This document shows positions 1 to 5,661 of a stretch of DNA of 5,661 nt, in pieces (within the stretch, counting starts at the first letter, position 1; every line of letters begins with the position of its first letter). The notes below the pieces were generated by a model, which had not been told where the DNA came from, did no database searches, and worked only from the letters and a program-made list of their open reading frames with translations. The stretch is from a virus (lineage: Duplodnaviria > Heunggongvirae > Uroviricota > Caudoviricetes). The translations under genes were made by a program, and so were the position numbers. Location of the stretch: IMG/VR virus record IMGVR_UViG_648276656_000007, positions 1-5,661 of that record. One strand, 5' to 3'.

Positions 1-2
1 TC

Positions 3-161
3 ATCCGTTTAACTCCGTGGTTAATGGGTGCAACTATTTTCTGTTGGGCAGTGCATGAGACGCTATTTGACCTGGCTGGTCAGTGGATGAAACAACAGAT
101 AAAGAAAAGGCGGGCAACTCGCCTGCCTGTCCTGATTTGTACACACTCATTTTCCGACTGA
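3..161 (+). CDS. Possible 3' end of a plus-strand accessory gene entering from the left edge (frame 3, open from position 3, stop TGA 159..161); hypothetical.
   Basis: Hand translation of frame 3: IRLTPWLMGATIFCWAVHETLFDLAGQWMKQQIKKRRATRLPVLICTHSFSD*. It is open from the window edge and protein-like, with a hydrophobic stretch followed by a basic tail. It cannot be distinguished from chance without the upstream sequence. Confidence 0.2.
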   Translation: MRLTPWLMGATIFCWAVHETLFDLAGQWMKQQIKKRRATRLPVLICTHSFSD

Positions 162-284
162 CAATTTACATAGCCAAAACGCTATCAAATCTGACAGTCT
201 GCTTTGAGCGAAAAGTGGACATTAGAGTTACAAAAGCAAGTTTAAATCATCCAAAATATTACAATGTCCTTATCTATCTGATAT

Positions 285-313
285 CGTTATGATAAAAAGC
301 TCCTGAATATAAT
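285..313 (+). promoter_or_regulatory. Candidate sigma70-type promoter for the membrane-protein gene: consensus -10 TATAAT at 308..313 with a weak -35 (cgttat / ttatga region, 285..292).
   Basis: Perfect TATAAT hexamer 22 nt upstream of the ATG and 8 nt upstream of the AGGTGG RBS, within AT-rich upstream DNA. The -35 match is poor, so strength and reality are uncertain. Confidence 0.3.
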
Positions 314-320
314 CGATAGT

Positions 321-326
321 AGGTGG
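321..326 (+). promoter_or_regulatory. Shine-Dalgarno sequence AGGTGG for the membrane-protein gene (ATG at 335).
   Basis: AGGTGG with 8-nt spacer to the ATG; read directly. Confidence 0.55.
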
Positions 327-334
327 TTATTTCC

Positions 335-712
335 ATGAAATCAATTTTAGAGGTTTTTACTCAAGGAAATACTAAAGAAAAACTGGCTGTTATCGCCGAT
401 CTCACAACCATTGCGGGAATATCGATTGCAACTATTATTGCTGGTTTGTTAACCCTAGTTGCAAAAACAGATAAACTAGATGTTGGAAATCTGTTTGGAG
501 TTGTCATAATATCTCTGCTCGGATTGGCTGGTGTTTGCTGTTTTGTGGCCTTATTTATTTGGGTTATAACCCAAATGTCTAAACCATGGGGAACACCTCG
601 GGGGGTTCAGCCCTTAGTTAAGTGTGCTATTTCCCTTATCTTTATCTGTATGTTTTTGCTGGCTGTCTTTACATTTTATGATTTTATTTCCTCGATGAGC
701 ATACGCTATTGA
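335..712 (+). CDS. Hypothetical small integral membrane protein, about 125 aa from ATG 335 (the ORF track's 129-aa version starts at GTG 323), with three predicted transmembrane helices; accessory (moron-like) gene.
   Basis: ATG at 335 is preceded by AGGTGG (321..326) at 8-nt spacing, which makes ATG 335 a better start than GTG 323. Three hydrophobic stretches of about 25 residues: LAVIADLTTIAGISIATIIAGLLTLVA (about nt 383..463), LFGVVIISLLGLAGVCCFVALFIWVI (about 491..568) and LVKCAISLIFICMFLLAVFTFYDFI (about 611..685). The TGA stop at 710..712 is followed 20 nt later by a perfect hairpin terminator. A 126-codon open frame in roughly 30-40% GC DNA is unlikely by chance. I do not recognise a named family. 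Confidence 0.65.
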   Translation: MKSILEVFTQGNTKEKLAVIADLTTIAGISIATIIAGLLTLVAKTDKLDVGNLFGVVIISLLGLAGVCCFVALFIWVITQMSKPWGTPRGVQPLVKCAISLIFICMFLLAVFTFYDFISSMSIRY

Positions 713-731
713 ATATAAAATCAGCCCCATA

Positions 732-767
732 AATTAAAAGAGACCTTCTATAAGGTCTCTTTTAATT
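732..767. terminator. Bidirectional intrinsic terminator: perfect 16-bp inverted repeat AATTAAAAGAGACCTT / AAGGTCTCTTTTAATT (732..747 and 752..767) with 4-nt loop CTAT; T-tract on the plus strand and, by symmetry, on the minus strand.
   Basis: Read directly from the sequence. The GC-containing core stem AGAGACCTT/AAGGTCTCT is flanked by A4 upstream and T4 downstream on both strands. It lies 20 nt after the stop of the plus-strand membrane-protein gene and 15 nt after the stop of the candidate minus-strand small ORF. It is also the first U-tract terminator encountered by minus-strand transcription reading out of gene G. Confidence 0.6.
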
Positions 768-781
768 GAATTACTATCCTA

Positions 782-934
782 TTAATCCAGAGAATCTTTA
801 TCATCACAAAACAACAAACATTGGAGATAATTAATAAACCAATCATCCTCAAAATCATCTTTATCTTTTACAAAGCGAGTATCAGCATTAATTCTAACAT
901 CAAGTCTAGAATGAAGCATTTTATGTATCTTCAT
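782..934 (-). CDS. Candidate small acidic ORF of 50 aa from ATG 934..932 (45 aa if from ATG 919..917), convergent with the membrane-protein gene; hypothetical.
   Basis: Minus-strand translation MKIHKMLHSRLDVRINADTRFVKDKDDFEDDWFINYLQCLLFCDDKDSLD with TAA stop at 784..782, 15 nt before the palindromic terminator. The frame is open for about 50 codons in ~28% GC sequence, where stops are frequent. No convincing Shine-Dalgarno; it is below the ORF-track length cut-off. Read by hand. Confidence 0.25.
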   Translation of the reverse strand: MKIHKMLHSRLDVRINADTRFVKDKDDFEDDWFINYLQCLLFCDDKDSLD

Positions 935-1085
935 GCAGCTTGCGCGCTTTATCTCGTTTTTTGTAGGTGGTGTACTATCTCTAAATGACTATTTATATGG
1001 TGTAAGACTACTGACTTTAGAGGGCTATGATCTACATAGTTCATCTAACCATTATTCTCCAAATAAACTATACAACATCCGCTTC

Positions 1086-1127
1086 TGGCACAGAGCGGAC
1101 TGTCAGATTAGGCTTTACTCTGTGCCA
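1086..1127. other. Stem-loop / inverted repeat: 10-bp perfect stem TGGCACAGAG (1086..1095) / CTCTGTGCCA (1118..1127) with a 22-nt loop, 23 nt downstream of the G stop on the operon transcript, with no flanking U-tract.
   Basis: Read directly; all 10 base pairs are complementary. There is no T-tract on either side, so it is not a canonical intrinsic terminator. It could be a 3' mRNA-stabilising hairpin or a protein-binding or recombination site at the junction between conserved phage DNA and the AT-rich segment. Confidence 0.4.
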
Positions 1128-1149
1128 TAGATATGTAAGCTAATACAAC

Positions 1150-1677
1150 TTATTGCGGCATTTCCGGCCATTCAGGATTTGCAGGATCCACACGACTGAC
1201 CAGAACGCTGTAGCGTTCCCATGATTCCAGTCGGCTACGCTCCTCATCTGTTGCCATGTTCAGTCTGACCGCGCGCTCCAGCGGCAAAATCACGGATTCA
1301 GCATCTGCAAGAAGTCTGGCTTTCCGGTTTTGTGCCTGCTGCTGCAATTCCTCTGCCGTATAAATGCGTTTAATCACTTTGCCGTCCTTAAACATCCAGC
1401 CCCCTGAAATGTCCGCCCGTCGGTTAGCAGTAATATCCGCCACTTCAACAACACTTAATCCATCCGGTCTGATAGCTGTCACATCCTTTTCCACATAGCG
1501 GATAATATTATCTTTGTCGTACGCTATTTTTATCGTGTCATCAGCAAAATACTTTTGTTCTTCGTACCAGTTCTTACCATCTTCTGAAAAAAACCAGACA
1601 ACATCAAAACCCTTTGTCAATTGATATTGTTCAACCGTTTTTGGATTACCCGCCGTAATATTTTTTAAATGCTGCAT
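1150..1677 (-). CDS. G: Tail fibre assembly chaperone (P2 gpG / Tfa family), 175 aa.
   Basis: [43 protein letters not shown]...[42 protein letters not shown]. The C-terminal [20 protein letters not shown] motif is characteristic of phage tail-fibre assembly proteins, and 175 aa is the P2 gpG length as I recall it. It lies immediately downstream of H, with an AGGT Shine-Dalgarno-like element 7 nt before the ATG (1677..1675). Stop TAA at 1152..1150. Confidence 0.93.
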
Positions 1678-1680
1678 AAA

Positions 1681-4440
1681 TTATACCTGCGCCACGTTAT
1701 ACCATGTCCCGTTAATGTATTTCTGAACCGGTCTGTAATATACACCACCAATGTTATCGGCAGAGTTTGAGCCGGTATCCTGAACAATAATGCCGGAATA
1801 TACACACCCGGACGGTGCCTGATGTGTCCATGTCATGCCATTGTTAGCAGGTTTGTATGTGGCAGCACCACCAAGCCGGATATCCCGGACATAGCGGGAA
1901 TCAAAGTTACCGTAATCCGAGGGATTAACACGCCCCGTAATATTTATGGTTTTATTACTTTGAATACTTCCCGAGACAAAGCGCATAACATGGACGCTAT
2001 TAGCATAAACATCCAGATTACCATCACCATTTTGTTTAAAGCCCGTGTCATTATCACCCAAAACAATCGAATTACCGCCAAGAGCACTGGATGTTCCTAT
2101 ACCCAGAGCACCATTCAATTGACCACCAGATAACGGCAGTGCACCGACATCTCCCGCTGTAGGTTTTCGCGTTGTGGTATAAAACTCAGACCAGTCAGCC
2201 TCGAATCCGTAACCGTCACGAGCAGAACGATAAAAAATACCGCCGTTCTTATAATTAACGCGGAACTGGGCGGCGGGACAACTTCCTTCACCGATATTAA
2301 AATGAAGAATTAACGTTGATGCCCCACCAGTAGTTGCGTTATAGGCTCCGCTACTCCAGCTCCACCCAACGGCTTTATCATTCGCAACGGTGTCTCCTGT
2401 TTTTCCTGAAGCAAATGCACCAATATTTTTCGGCGTCAGGTTAATATCTGATGTTCCATCAAACGAAACGTTATTAATTTTACGGGCTGTTTTCAGCTTT
2501 GTTGCTGTCGCCGCATTGCCGGACAGTTCACCAGAAAGGCCAGCACTGAATGTCTGTTTCGCGCCCCATGTCTGGGCTTCGTCAATGATTGGTACTCGTC
2601 TTGCTGTGATCGTGCGGCTTCCCGGATTTCCTGAAATACGCACCATAAAAAATCGGTAGTTCGCTTTACTTACAGTGCTGCGCCATACATGCATTGAGCG
2701 CCCCGTACCGGAATCATCACTCGGACCAACTGCGATGTTTATCAGGTTGCCATCAATGACGCCCCAGTCCATACCGTCGGGAATATTGGTCATATTATCC
2801 AGCCTAACGGTTATCAGACTGCCCGGCACAAAATCGTAGGTCTGCCAGTCCAGGTTGGTGAGCTTTGCCACAGCACCGCCGATACCCAGATTCAGGGGAA
2901 GTGAATACGAGGTGTAGACTTCCCGCCATTCGCTCCATGAGCTGCCGGTAAAGACGCGCTCAAAGGTGCGGCCTTTAAGGGTTGTACCTGTTCCGGCAGT
3001 TGTATAACGCTGCCATACATTAACACCATCAAACCGCCTCAACACTTCCAGAATGCCGAGTACAGTCACGCCGTTTCCGTCCAGTACTGGACCGTTGGTC
3101 GCTTTACCTGTAACGCTGTAAATACCTGGTGAGGTTACATCATTCAAATCACCTTCGTAATAACGACTCTCTGACTGATGACCGACTCTTAACCACGGTT
3201 CCCACTGCGGATTTGATGCATCCCAGCTTGCCGCAAGGCAGCGGACATACATATTTCCACGGCGAGTGGTATAACGTTGCGTTCTTCCATAATTCCCGCC
3301 TTCGAGGATCTCAAGCGTCCCCTGAGCAAAGCCACCTTCCTCTGGATAATTGAGTTCATATGAAGCTATAGCCGAGCTACTGTTACGCCATAAACCAAGA
3401 TGTTCGGCGGATCCAAGCGTATTCAGGTCTATAGTCGTACTCAAAGGGCGGGTAGCTGATTGAGTGTGACGCCATACGCCCCACGGACCATCAGTGCCAT
3501 TCCACTTATTGGCGAGTTTACGCATGTATACATTGCCGTCTCTTGTGGTAAAGCGTTGCGTACCTGCAAAATTGCCGGCAGCAAAAACCTCAAGCACACC
3601 GACAGCATTATCTTCCGGGAAGTTTTTCTCCAGTGTTGCGTTAGTTGAGGTAGCTTTAGACCAGATCCCTAGATAAGCCTTAACGGGACCAAATGTATTC
3701 AGGTCAGCATCAAGCGGCATTTCGCCATTGTTTTTCATAAACGTCAGGCTGGTAACGCCAACATTGTCCAGAAAAGCGCCCTTATCTGGAATATCGCCAC
3801 CGTTCTGGTCTTTCTGCATACGTTTTTCAGCATTGTCATAGGCTGCTTTTACTGCCTTTGGCGTTGCTGCCAGCTTTTCACTGGTGCTGTTTGTTGCACT
3901 GCTTAACTGAGTAAAACCTTTTTCTGTCAGCGTGGCGTCAGGATGGCGACGGGACTGCTCATGCTCTGCGATTTTGTCATCGACGTAATCCTGCGTCGCC
4001 ATCACTGTGCTGGCATCAATACTCAGTTCAACGGACGCCACGTTACTGACAATAATGACCATGCGGCAGGTCTGCGCACGTCCGGAGCCTTCAGCCAGTT
4101 CAGGCTTATAACTTTCTGCCATGTTAGCGACCGCAATCAGTGTTCCGGCATCGTCATACAGACCAAGTTCACGCATCCAGAAGCCGCCCACTTCTGGCGG
4201 TACAACCAGTTCAGCCACGATATAGTTTTTATTCTTATTATCCACGCTGACTTTATTCAGAGCGTGACGCCAGACCTCATGCACCAGTTTCGTCTGACCG
4301 GCATCCGGCACCGGCAATTTGCCATTACCGTCACCCACGGCCATTGCAGACAAGTTTACTTTTTTCCCGCCGGGGACAGTGGCGGCAGCCAGCTTTGCGG
4401 CTCCGGCAGTAGTGATAACGGTTTTAAATTTCGTGCTCAT
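1681..4440 (-). CDS. H: Tail fibre protein H (P2 gpH-like), 919 aa, mosaic: conserved N-terminal baseplate-attachment region, three tandem ~93-aa central repeats, conserved P2-H-type C-terminus.
   Basis: Uninterrupted 919-codon ORF. The N-terminus MSTKFKTVITTAGAAKLAAAT...GGFWMRELGLYDDAGTLIAVANMAESYKPELAEGSG and the C-terminus ...LGGNSIVLGDNDTGFKQNGDGNLDVYANS...NFDSRYV...RPVQKYINGTWYNVAQV match my recollection of P2 gpH. It sits between I and the chaperone G as in P2. The TAA stop at 1683..1681 is 3 nt before the G start. Confidence 0.93.
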   Translation of the reverse strand: MSTKFKTVITTAGAAKLAAATVPGGKKVNLSAMAVGDGNGKLPVPDAGQTKLVHEVWRHALNKVSVDNKNKNYIVAELVVPPEVGGFWMRELGLYDDAGTLIAVANMAESYKPELAEGSGRAQTCRMVIIVSNVASVELSIDASTVMATQDYVDDKIAEHEQSRRHPDATLTEKGFTQLSSATNSTSEKLAATPKAVKAAYDNAEKRMQKDQNGGDIPDKGAFLDNVGVTSLTFMKNNGEMPLDADLNTFGPVKAYLGIWSKATSTNATLEKNFPEDNAVGVLEVFAAGNFAGTQRFTTRDGNVYMRKLANKWNGTDGPWGVWRHTQSATRPLSTTIDLNTLGSAEHLGLWRNSSSAIASYELNYPEEGGFAQGTLEILEGGNYGRTQRYTTRRGNMYVRCLAASWDASNPQWEPWLRVGHQSESRYYEGDLNDVTSPGIYSVTGKATNGPVLDGNGVTVLGILEVLRRFDGVNVWQRYTTAGTGTTLKGRTFERVFTGSSWSEWREVYTSYSLPLNLGIGGAVAKLTNLDWQTYDFVPGSLITVRLDNMTNIPDGMDWGVIDGNLINIAVGPSDDSGTGRSMHVWRSTVSKANYRFFMVRISGNPGSRTITARRVPIIDEAQTWGAKQTFSAGLSGELSGNAATATKLKTARKINNVSFDGTSDINLTPKNIGAFASGKTGDTVANDKAVGWSWSSGAYNATTGGASTLILHFNIGEGSCPAAQFRVNYKNGGIFYRSARDGYGFEADWSEFYTTTRKPTAGDVGALPLSGGQLNGALGIGTSSALGGNSIVLGDNDTGFKQNGDGNLDVYANSVHVMRFVSGSIQSNKTINITGRVNPSDYGNFDSRYVRDIRLGGAATYKPANNGMTWTHQAPSGCVYSGIIVQDTGSNSADNIGGVYYRPVQKYINGTWYNVAQV
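2911..3708 (-). repeat. Three in-frame tandem coding repeats of about 93 aa (about 279 nt) inside tail fibre gene H (protein residues about 245-337, 338-430, 431-510).
   Basis: Each unit starts with DLN(T/D) and carries the motif G(V/T/I)LE(V/I)...G..(T/W)QR(F/Y)TT(R/A)..(N/T).Y.R....W.....W..W. Examples are GVLEVFAAGNFAGTQRFTTRDGNVYMRKLANKWNGTDGPWGVW, GTLEILEGGNYGRTQRYTTRRGNMYVRCLAASWDASNPQWEPW and GILEVLRRFDGVNVWQRYTTAGTGTTLKGRTFERVFTGSSWSEW. Residue-to-nucleotide mapping was checked at Y390 = 3273..3271. Repeats 1 and 2 are also recognisable at the DNA level. Confidence 0.7.
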
Positions 4441-4450
4441 TGTTTCTCAC

Positions 4451-4981
4451 TTATCCGGGATAAACAGTAATAACATCACCATCACAGACCACACCGCCTG
4501 TATACAGATAGCCGGGAATGTCCTGGATAATGTTCAGACCGATAAGGTGGCGACTTGCGGGTTTGGCATCGGCAATCAGCCGTTCCATTTCCAGATACAT
4601 TTCCTCTGTGATACCGCTTTCCAGCACGCCGATATCAAGGCGAAAGGTTCCGGCCGGGTCGTTTGTCTCCCACCATTCCTTTACATTAATGAGATAGCCG
4701 AGCGGCTCCACCACACGCCGGATTGCACCTATAGTGCCTTTATGACAGTGGATGAAATAGGCATCGCGGATAACGGCGCGTTTTGTCGCTTCCGGCCACT
4801 TTTCATCCCACCTGTCGACCGAAAACGCCCACGCCAGCCACGGCAGCAGATTTGCCGGACAGGTATCCGGGTTCCACAGCTCACGAATACTGACCGGCGT
4901 TTTTTCAATTTCCGCACAGGCTTTTGCGGCAGCAACTTCAAGCGGTGATGAGCCGGTCGGCAGCAGGCGCGAATCACTCAT
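4451..4981 (-). CDS. I: Tail/baseplate protein I (P2 gpI-like), 176 aa.
   Basis: ORF MSDSRLLPTGSSPLEVAAAK...DGDVITVYPG, 176 aa, which is the length I recall for P2 gpI. A GGAGG Shine-Dalgarno (complement of 4987..4991) sits 5 nt upstream of the ATG at 4981..4979. The start overlaps the J stop (ATGAGTGA), as expected for translationally coupled P2 late genes. The TAA stop at 4453..4451 lies 10 nt before the H start. Confidence 0.9.
   Translation of the reverse strand: MSDSRLLPTGSSPLEVAAAKACAEIEKTPVSIRELWNPDTCPANLLPWLAWAFSVDRWDEKWPEATKRAVIRDAYFIHCHKGTIGAIRRVVEPLGYLINVKEWWETNDPAGTFRLDIGVLESGITEEMYLEMERLIADAKPASRHLIGLNIIQDIPGYLYTGGVVCDGDVITVYPG
4974..4981 (-). promoter_or_regulatory. Overlapping stop/start junction ATGAGTGA between J (stop TGA) and I (start ATG), indicating translational coupling.
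   Basis: On the minus strand the I start ATG (4981..4979) and the J stop TGA (4976..4974) overlap in different frames; read directly. Confidence 0.6.
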
Positions 4982-5661
4982 CCGAGCCTCCGGTCACGAC
5001 GCGGTATTCGGTACAGAAAGACGCCTGCGTACTGTCAAGCACGATGTCAGCCAGCGGTGCAGCCAGTTCGACACGCTGCACGCCTTCCACATGCAAAGCG
5101 GCATAAATGGCAGACAGACGGATATCGCGCCCCAGCCGGTGCTGTGCCGTGATGTACGCTTCCAGTTTTTTCACGGCGGCAGCGCGGATGGGTTCGCTTT
5201 CGGGACCAGGGTAAAGGTAAAGCGTGGCGTTTATCTGGTATTCAACAATGGCGGCAGACTGCACGGTCACACGGTCTGCCACCGGTCTGACGTCCTCGCC
5301 ATTCAGGGCGTTACGCACCACGGCCAGCAGGTCTTCGGATGCGACACCGTTATTTTCACGTGACAGCACAGAGATGGTGACACAGGCCGGAGACGGACTG
5401 GTGACAGAGATATCCGCGACACGCCCGTCGGCACTGCGACCATGATACTGATAGGCTCCCACCGACCCGGCGACGCTTAAGCCTTCAAACGCCTGCTGAA
5501 TACGCAGACGATAATCGGTGTCAGACTCCATCACTGCCGGTGTCGGCGGGATAGTCGAATCATCTGCCGGGGTGATAATCAGGCGCGAGGTGTTGTAATT
5601 AGCACCAATCACATCAAGGTCATTACCGGCAGCACAGGCCAGCATCACCGCCCGTGCGGCC
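4974..5661 (-). CDS. J: Baseplate assembly protein J (P2 gpJ-like), 5'-partial. The reading frame stays open to the window edge at 5661, so the true start lies beyond the window; stop TGA at 4976..4974.
   Basis: Long minus-strand ORF (at least 228 codons) in GC-rich, coding-like sequence, directly upstream of and overlapping a gpI-like gene in the conserved P2 order J-I-H-G. The in-frame codons upstream of the track's first Met (5649..5660) have no stop. P2 gpJ is about 300 aa from memory, consistent with a truncated N-terminus. Family assignment is from gene order and recalled sequence character, not a search. Confidence 0.85.
   Translation of the reverse strand, partial: AARAVMLACAAGNDLDVIGANYNTSRLIITPADDSTIPPTPAVMESDTDYRLRIQQAFEGLSVAGSVGAYQYHGRSADGRVADISVTSPSPACVTISVLSRENNGVASEDLLAVVRNALNGEDVRPVADRVTVQSAAIVEYQINATLYLYPGPESEPIRAAAVKKLEAYITAQHRLGRDIRLSAIYAALHVEGVQRVELAAPLADIVLDSTQASFCTEYRVVTGGSDE

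Follow-up and report, generated by a model that had tools for sequence, protein, structure and literature searches.

A predicted three-pass membrane protein carried as Z-region cargo of a P2-like prophage and its possible role in phage exclusion

What does a small membrane protein do for a P2-like prophage when its gene stands among the tail genes and is read against them? The question is raised by a 5,661-nt stretch of viral DNA (IMG/VR record IMGVR_UViG_648276656_000007, positions 1 to 5,661; hereafter the window), whose minus strand carries P2-type tail genes according to open reading frame (ORF) calls and a Pfam scan. The gene in question occupies 335-712 on the plus strand. An earlier note, made from the letters of this DNA alone, had proposed that its product is a superinfection-exclusion or abortive-infection effector. 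We find it very probable that 335-712 is a real gene, that it encodes a membrane protein and that it forms part of a self-contained cassette. Genomic context points tentatively, and with a good chance of being wrong, to a stand-alone role in phage exclusion or abortive infection at the membrane. For the combined reading, which joins gene, membrane protein and cassette to an exclusion function, we estimate a probability of roughly 0.4.

A coding gene for a small membrane protein

The ORF called at 335-712 (plus strand, ATG start) encodes a predicted three-pass inner-membrane protein of 125 aa (WP_000836023.1-type, PHROG 4155). Ratios of nonsynonymous to synonymous substitution rates (dN/dS) of 0.15-0.5 across relatives 59-94% identical indicate that it is a real coding gene under purifying selection. 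An upstream in-frame GTG at 323 was considered as the start and rejected: all relatives begin MK(S/T)I at the ATG, and the GTG is not conserved among homologous loci. Hydropathy computed in 19-residue windows peaks at about residues 23-43, 53-79 and 97-115, with Kyte-Doolittle values of 2.2-2.8 and summed Hessa free energies of -0.6 to -3.3 kcal/mol. AlphaFold2 supplied with 64 relatives returned three long helices (13-44, 50-81 and 91-120) at a predicted local distance difference test score (pLDDT) of 73.9; supplied with 17 close relatives it gave a poor model (pLDDT 61.5). Lysines and arginines average 6.2 in the N-terminus plus loop 2 versus 1.8 in loop 1 plus the C-terminal tail, a bias found in 64/64 aligned sequences. 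The positive-inside bias thus predicts an N-in/C-out topology, in which the N-terminus and loop 2 would be cytoplasmic and loop 1 and the C-terminus periplasmic. Both the ORF of about 125 aa and the three membrane helices described in the earlier note are borne out. The note had also drawn attention to cysteines and to an aspartate within helix 1: four cysteines (C68, C69, C97 and C105) and Asp22 are indeed present, but the weight placed on the cysteines does not survive beyond close relatives, with only 2-4/50 distant members retaining them.

The protein matches PHROG 4155, a group of unassigned function, along its whole length (E = 2.6e-82; residues 1-125 against profile positions 5-129 of 129). 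Scans of the protein and 37 relatives with Pfam, NCBIfam and PADLOC gave nothing significant, and the best hit among the defence models of PADLOC-DB 2.0 was a two-transmembrane effector model at E = 0.89. The earlier statement that the sequence belongs to no recognized named family stands. Close homologues (59-98% identity) are Enterobacterales proteins, all annotated as "hypothetical". An exhaustive profile search yielded 56 cluster representatives of 69-183 aa (most of them 110-135 aa), nearly all aligned over most of the query. Conservation is centred on the N-terminal 32 residues, namely G11, L17, D22 (98%), G28 (100%) and S30 (98%), and an aromatic residue at position 100 is typical of the family. 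A sequence-profile search of the PDB produced chance-level matches alone (E of at least 0.017), a Foldseek search of the pLDDT 73.9 model against PDB and BFVD found nothing at E <= 0.001, and the sequence searches matched no annotated superinfection-exclusion family. Literature searches by RefSeq accession, for Sll1717 and through the DefensePredictor supplements found no mention of the membrane protein.

The gene also appears to carry its own expression signals. A Shine-Dalgarno sequence, AGGTGG (321-326, plus strand), lies 8 nt before the ATG and is partly kept in relatives as AGGTTG or AGATGG. Downstream, a hairpin at 732-767 with a perfect 16-bp stem and a 4-nt loop is a putative bidirectional intrinsic terminator for both strands. 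Its folding energy on the plus strand is -19.4 kcal/mol (z = -7.2), the minus strand folds equally well, and the hairpin is kept in six loci, with compensatory double changes in 3/12 pairs. The good Shine-Dalgarno and the perfect downstream hairpin of the earlier note are both upheld. Its -10 hexamer fared less well: TATAAT is in the sequence at 308-313 (plus strand), but there is no usable -35, the promoter scan gave no report there, and the hexamer reads AAT-TAAC in Pectobacterium, Serratia, Yersinia and other loci. A probable promoter/operator is instead a 37-bp upstream block, CAATGTCCTTATCTATCTGATATCGTTATGATAAAAA (262-298, plus strand), which is kept in 11/11 aligned loci, even at one whose protein is only 59% identical. 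Within this block, TATGAT at 288-293 is a better -10 candidate than TATAAT at 308-313.

Cargo of the Z-region

The gene lies in a slot where P2-like phages carry acquired genes. Tail fibre assembly gene G occupies 1150-1677 (minus strand; Pfam Caudo_TAP, E = 7e-34, and RefSeq annotation of a near-identical locus), and the start of sheath gene FI falls at window position 4, the gene extending leftwards on the minus strand, as placed through the RefSeq annotation of a near-identical E. coli locus (98.6% identical to the window). The interval from 5 to 1149 thus corresponds to the Z-region of a P2-like prophage, a recognized acquisition site for horizontally transferred genes (PMC3091744). We compared the cassette with the properties of Z-region cargo described by Nilsson et al. 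2004, as these are represented in GenBank AJ5126xx records and citing papers. It lies between G and FI of a P2-like phage; its composition is foreign and AT-rich, with a G+C fraction of 0.28-0.40 over 200-1100 versus 0.46-0.59 in tail genes H, I and J; and it is flanked by inverted repeats (arms 188-219 and 1078-1109, 81% complementary). In P2 the same slot is filled by fun(Z), antisense to the late genes in the annotation of the P2 record, where it is described as [quoted passage not shown]. The proposal of a self-contained moron at a prophage accessory locus fits these observations, the gene being part of an AT-rich unit transcribed opposite to the late operon.

Both boundaries of the cassette are recognizable as repeats. 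The right boundary repeat (188-222), inverted with respect to 1078-1109, matches the "right inverted repeat" of AJ512683, and the left boundary repeat (1075-1112) matches the "left inverted repeat" of AJ5126xx records; the arms together match repeats annotated in AJ512681, AJ512683 and AJ512685. Each arm holds a unit of the type GTCCGCT-N10-AGCGGAC, present as GTCTGCT-N10-AGTGGAC within the right repeat (197-220, plus strand) and as GTCCGCT-N10-AGCGGAT within the left one (1077-1100, minus strand). Such units occur at every cassette junction of multi-cassette Z-regions. They fall into two sequence subtypes, and further sites were seen at 2197-2220, 3052-3075, 3094-3117 and 3975-3998 of locus L002 and at six positions of locus L031. 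Loci of Serratia, Klebsiella, Enterobacter and Yersinia keep the motif GAGCGAAAAGTGGACAT (206-222) upstream of the gene, and the half-motif GAGCGAAAAGCGGACAT precedes the gene in non-phage islands too.

The cassette once held a second gene. At 842-1018 (minus strand) lies a 3′ remnant of a Fun(Z)/Sll1717-family P-loop ATPase gene, consisting of its last 59 codons (aa 498-556; tblastn 85% identity, E = 2e-26). Homology to intact ATPase loci ends at ~1018-1020, so that the ATPase gene is deleted in the window. An ORF at 782-934 (minus strand) was considered as a separate small gene and rejected as the read-through tail of the relic, which has lost its original stop and reads on into a 50-aa artefact. 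The earlier note missed this history, having overlooked both the stump and the Z-region inverted repeats. In Serratia, Enterobacter, Klebsiella and a further lineage, with differing outer flanks, an intact 556-aa ATPase gene is convergent to the membrane-protein gene at a distance of ~127 nt, and the hairpin corresponding to 732-767 is common to the two. The intact protein is a "P-loop ATPase, Sll1717 family" member (NF047389, 209.5 bits) with weak similarity to DS41_1 and nSTAND1. P2 Fun(Z) (NC_001895 15675-17261, complement) matches the same model over its full length with 209.3 bits, which identifies the deleted partner as a Fun(Z)-family gene; the intact gene used for comparison with P2 Fun(Z) lies at 6505-8175 of locus L013. 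In islands the ATPase gene is adjoined by that of a tyrosine recombinase of 194-200 aa, 91-93% identical between E. coli S88 and Enterobacter or other islands. S88-type Z-regions have the recombinase directly after the hairpin, within whose loop they cease to be homologous to the window. Repeats and recombinase together look like an integron-like cassette exchange system. We infer that the cassette entered as one island made up of boundary repeat, membrane-protein gene, convergent ATPase gene and 200-aa tyrosine recombinase gene, and that two different deletions in E. coli then removed the ATPase gene, both sparing the membrane-protein gene.

The membrane-protein gene is present in 64/5,426 complete E. 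coli genomes; the Z-region flanks were matched in ~1,200 genomes. Three E. coli arrangements were found: the gene with the ATPase stump alone, as in the window; the gene with a DUF6650 cassette added, in strains including the O25:H4 isolate CU568-3; and the gene with the recombinase and a DUF5677 gene (S88-type). Across these three arrangements the gene is near-full-length in 63/64 carriers, which favours its retention. IMG/VR prophage-derived contigs also carry it, and a scan of genome contigs gave matches from one species. The cargo proteins adjoining it, the DUF6650 protein (locus L002 2316-2792) and the DUF5677 protein (S88, locus L005 9127-9969), are uncharacterized and had no PADLOC match. 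The P2-like element of E. coli S88 (NC_011742 2168174-2184627) comprises only a tail module (V to D, plus ogrK), with trhP on one side and a GTP pyrophosphokinase gene on the other. The membrane-protein gene is still in place, and the stretch examined holds no head, lysis or replication genes; a defective remnant and a tailocin-like cluster are the two readings that the element allows.

Phage exclusion and its rivals

Relatives of the protein recur in prophage and defence hotspots, which makes a defence role plausible. Some lie in the Q-A region of P2/186-like prophages of Rahnella and Citrobacter, a known defence hotspot of such prophages (PMC9122126). One stands beside a serine invertase gene and sheath and tube genes in the Z-slot of another P2-like phage, one in a lambdoid moron region adjoining a RelA_SpoT-like gene, and one in a defence island with TIR-CHASE2, PIN, Abi_alpha and MmeI genes. 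Taken over unrelated contexts, the neighbours encode HEPN_AbiV, HEPN_RiboL-PSP, FRG, TIR, PIN, Abi_alpha, MmeI, RelA_SpoT-like and Fun(Z)-family ATPase proteins. In Yersinia and Pectobacterium the relatives occur without the ATPase. At the Yersinia enterocolitica locus (L010 6528-7358) the gene converges with that of a 276-aa protein, which matches DUF2971 weakly (E = 0.008), and a DUF4145 protein comes next; the DefensePredictor study validated the defence activity of a system labelled "2971" (DS-45), a name that presumably refers to DUF2971.

The exclusion reading can be put as a mechanism, worked out from these contexts and from the pattern of conservation. The protein would be made in the lysogen and would act alone at the cytoplasmic membrane as a phage-exclusion factor, either blocking genome entry of a superinfecting phage or bringing about a membrane-level abortive infection. 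Its functional core would be the cytoplasmic N-terminal motif together with the first half of helix 1 (G11, L17, D22, G28 and S30). A wider proposal is more speculative, and we regard it as unlikely in full: the ~120-aa family would be a new family of single-gene exclusion proteins, with an Asp-Gly-Ser triad in helix 1 and no soluble sensor, that block genome entry or depolarize the membrane. It would be spread over P2-like, lambdoid and island hotspots on cassettes shuffled by the small tyrosine recombinase acting on GTCCGCT-N10-AGCGGAC repeats.

Several results weigh against an exclusion role. The argument for defence is one of guilt by association with defence genes and carries weak force. 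No homology to a known exclusion protein, defence model or solved structure was found in the searches described above, and a tblastn search of 50,697 isolated phage genomes with the protein and two of its distant relatives gave no match; the low-complexity (SEG) filter was not the cause of the empty phage and plasmid searches. The conserved upstream block at 262-298 has no recognizable -35, and the promoter scan was silent there. All E. coli copies carry Ser100, at a position occupied by Trp in 88% of distant relatives and by Phe, Trp or Tyr in close ones. The change is a single T-to-C substitution at codon position 2 (TCC at 632-634 versus TTT/TTC in close relatives), and it may attenuate or retune the protein in E. 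coli. Among E. coli variants dN/dS is 0.64, a value based on only 12 changes, and in E. coli MSI001 the IS5-family element ISKpn26 has inserted into the 3′ part of the gene (locus L006 5036-6367), the only disrupted copy among the 64 genomes. Together with the other negatives, these three findings leave room for a decaying relic. Finally, the three most similar non-E. coli lineages all have the ATPase next door, so that some functional link between membrane protein and ATPase may yet exist.

The alternative that survives best, though we consider it unlikely, is a lysogenic-conversion protein outside phage defence, one that would benefit the lysogen through host physiology such as transport, envelope stress or colonization. 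A moron architecture at a known cargo site would suit such a protein equally, the gene is kept in extra-intestinal pathogenic lineages including S88 and the O25:H4 strain CU568-3, and the Pfam, PHROG, PADLOC and NCBIfam scans revealed no defence-specific sequence feature. The neighbours in unrelated contexts, however, are overwhelmingly of the defence or conflict type rather than metabolic or virulence genes, which speaks against this reading.

Less likely again is that the protein is an orphaned accessory subunit, formerly at work with the convergent Fun(Z)/Sll1717-family ATPase, for instance as its membrane effector or anchor, and now an inert leftover that has not yet decayed. The close pairing of the two genes around one common hairpin in four lineages with different flanks fits this idea, as does the stump still present in the window. 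The ATPase family includes P2 Fun(Z) and is distant kin of the validated defence system DS-41 (PMC13092281), and the serine at position 100, the within-E. coli dN/dS of 0.64 and the one IS-disrupted copy are what a leftover might show. The distribution of the two genes argues the other way. In a tblastn search of 72,556 plasmid records (E <= 1e-5) the ATPase was matched in 270, of which 73 were at 80-90% identity and 186 below 60%, whereas the membrane protein was matched in 0/72,556. (The plasmid-borne ATPase copies are labelled "DNA repair protein" or "hypothetical protein" in the PLSDB gene table.) Members of the membrane-protein family conversely occur in at least seven other contexts that lack the ATPase, so co-occurrence is not obligate, and of the partner in the window only codons 498-556 remain. 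Single-gene action holds for P2 Fun(Z) and for DS-41, whose defence role as a one-gene system has been validated (PMC13092281). The membrane-protein and ATPase genes converge rather than forming an operon. Their recurrence as a pair probably reflects the spread of one island with its recombinase, a single event rather than repeated selection, and the two independent deletions that took the ATPase both spared the membrane-protein gene. An obligate two-gene system of transmembrane protein and ATPase was rejected on the plasmid counts and on the activity of P2 Fun(Z) as a cloned single gene, and the gene is probably not half of such a system.

We think it improbable that the protein, as an orphan, confers immunity to a pore-forming bacteriocin or to some other toxin that targets membranes. 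Immunity proteins to E1-type pore-forming colicins have ~110-115 aa and three transmembrane helices in an N-in/C-out arrangement, and their genes have their own promoter and are convergent to the neighbouring gene. The size and predicted topology of the 125-aa protein agree with this description. Against it, neither the protein nor its 37 relatives gave a Pfam or NCBIfam match to colicin or microcin immunity, and no bacteriocin or toxin gene adjoins the family in ~15 contexts; neither sequence matches nor adjacency to a colicin gene place the protein in the E1-type group.

A holin-like lysis or membrane-permeabilizing protein, with which the earlier note had seen a resemblance, is scarcely credible: three transmembrane helices, a size near that of class I holins and a weak PHROG holin match (E = 0.18) speak for it, but class I holins such as lambda S105 are N-out/C-in with a charged cytoplasmic C-tail and belong to a lysis cassette under late transcription, whereas this protein is predicted N-in/C-out in 64/64 relatives, has a C-tail of 6 residues with a net charge of about +1, lacks a dual-start motif because GTG 323 is not conserved, and is encoded between tail genes on the opposite strand, with no endolysin or spanin gene nearby and no lysis gene adjacent in any context examined.

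The rest of the window and comparison with known systems

The remainder of the window is P2-type tail region. Tail gene J (partial) occupies 4974-5648, tail gene I (Tail_P2_I) 4451-4981 and tail fibre gene H (919 aa) 1681-4440, all on the minus strand. The H product combines a P2-type N-terminus (Phage_tail_fib, Phage_fiber_2) with weak matches to T4 gp37-like C-terminal domains and contains two similar internal segments, …GNFAGTQRFTTRDGNVYMR… and …GNYGRTQRYTTRRGNMYVR…. Upstream of FI, overlapping ORF fragments at 24-161 and 83-292 (plus strand) within 24-292 correspond to the two halves of PHROG 11095, each in its own frame, which suggests a frameshifted or non-coding conserved sequence. A G+C-rich hairpin at 108-131 is terminator-like on both strands, and an Rfam scan of window positions 1-1300 gave no match.

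The locus matters in more than one way. Should the protein prove to be an exclusion factor, the cargo of P2-like prophages would gain a compact single-gene family of membrane defence, and the less studied Z-region would prove as informative a hotspot as the Q-A region already mined for defence. If no phenotype is found, it would be another hypothetical membrane protein in an ordinary P2 tail region. P2 fun(Z), the Sll1717 family of NCBIfam and a widespread plasmid-borne ATPase are in any case united here as one family, and the slot illustrates how such cargo is assembled and eroded, with an island arriving and later deletions taking parts of it away.

Compared with known systems, the protein has partial likenesses to several. 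Class I holins of the lambda S type share with it three transmembrane helices and a length of ~105-125 aa, but differ in the opposite topology (as predicted here), the charged C-tail, the lysis context and the dual start. Transmembrane effectors of abortive infection (RexB and those of CBASS, retron and TIR systems) are likewise small multi-pass proteins encoded beside NTPase, TIR or HEPN defence genes in hotspots of mobile elements (PMC9122126); unlike them, the 125-aa protein has no constant sensor partner, and its closest partner, the ATPase, is widespread without it. PHROG 4155 provides a full-length family match and, being unassigned in function, adds no mechanism.

Membrane superinfection-exclusion morons, of which HK97 gp15, T4 Imm and P22 SieA are examples, act on DNA entry of the incoming phage. 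Like them, this is a small inner-membrane accessory protein, and some of them are encoded in tail-gene regions and expressed by the resident phage; it shows no detectable sequence or fold similarity to the group, which is defined by the exclusion phenotype. P2 Fun(Z) differs in kind, being a 528-aa soluble P-loop ATPase (Sll1717) with no sequence similarity to the 125-aa protein, and its relative in the window is the deleted partner gene rather than 335-712. In setting, the two correspond closely: both genes occupy the slot between G and FI, both are antisense to the late operons, and both are AT-rich, non-structural cargo bounded by Z-region repeats. The protein described here is an uncharacterized addition to a known kind, the prophage cargo of the P2 Z-region.

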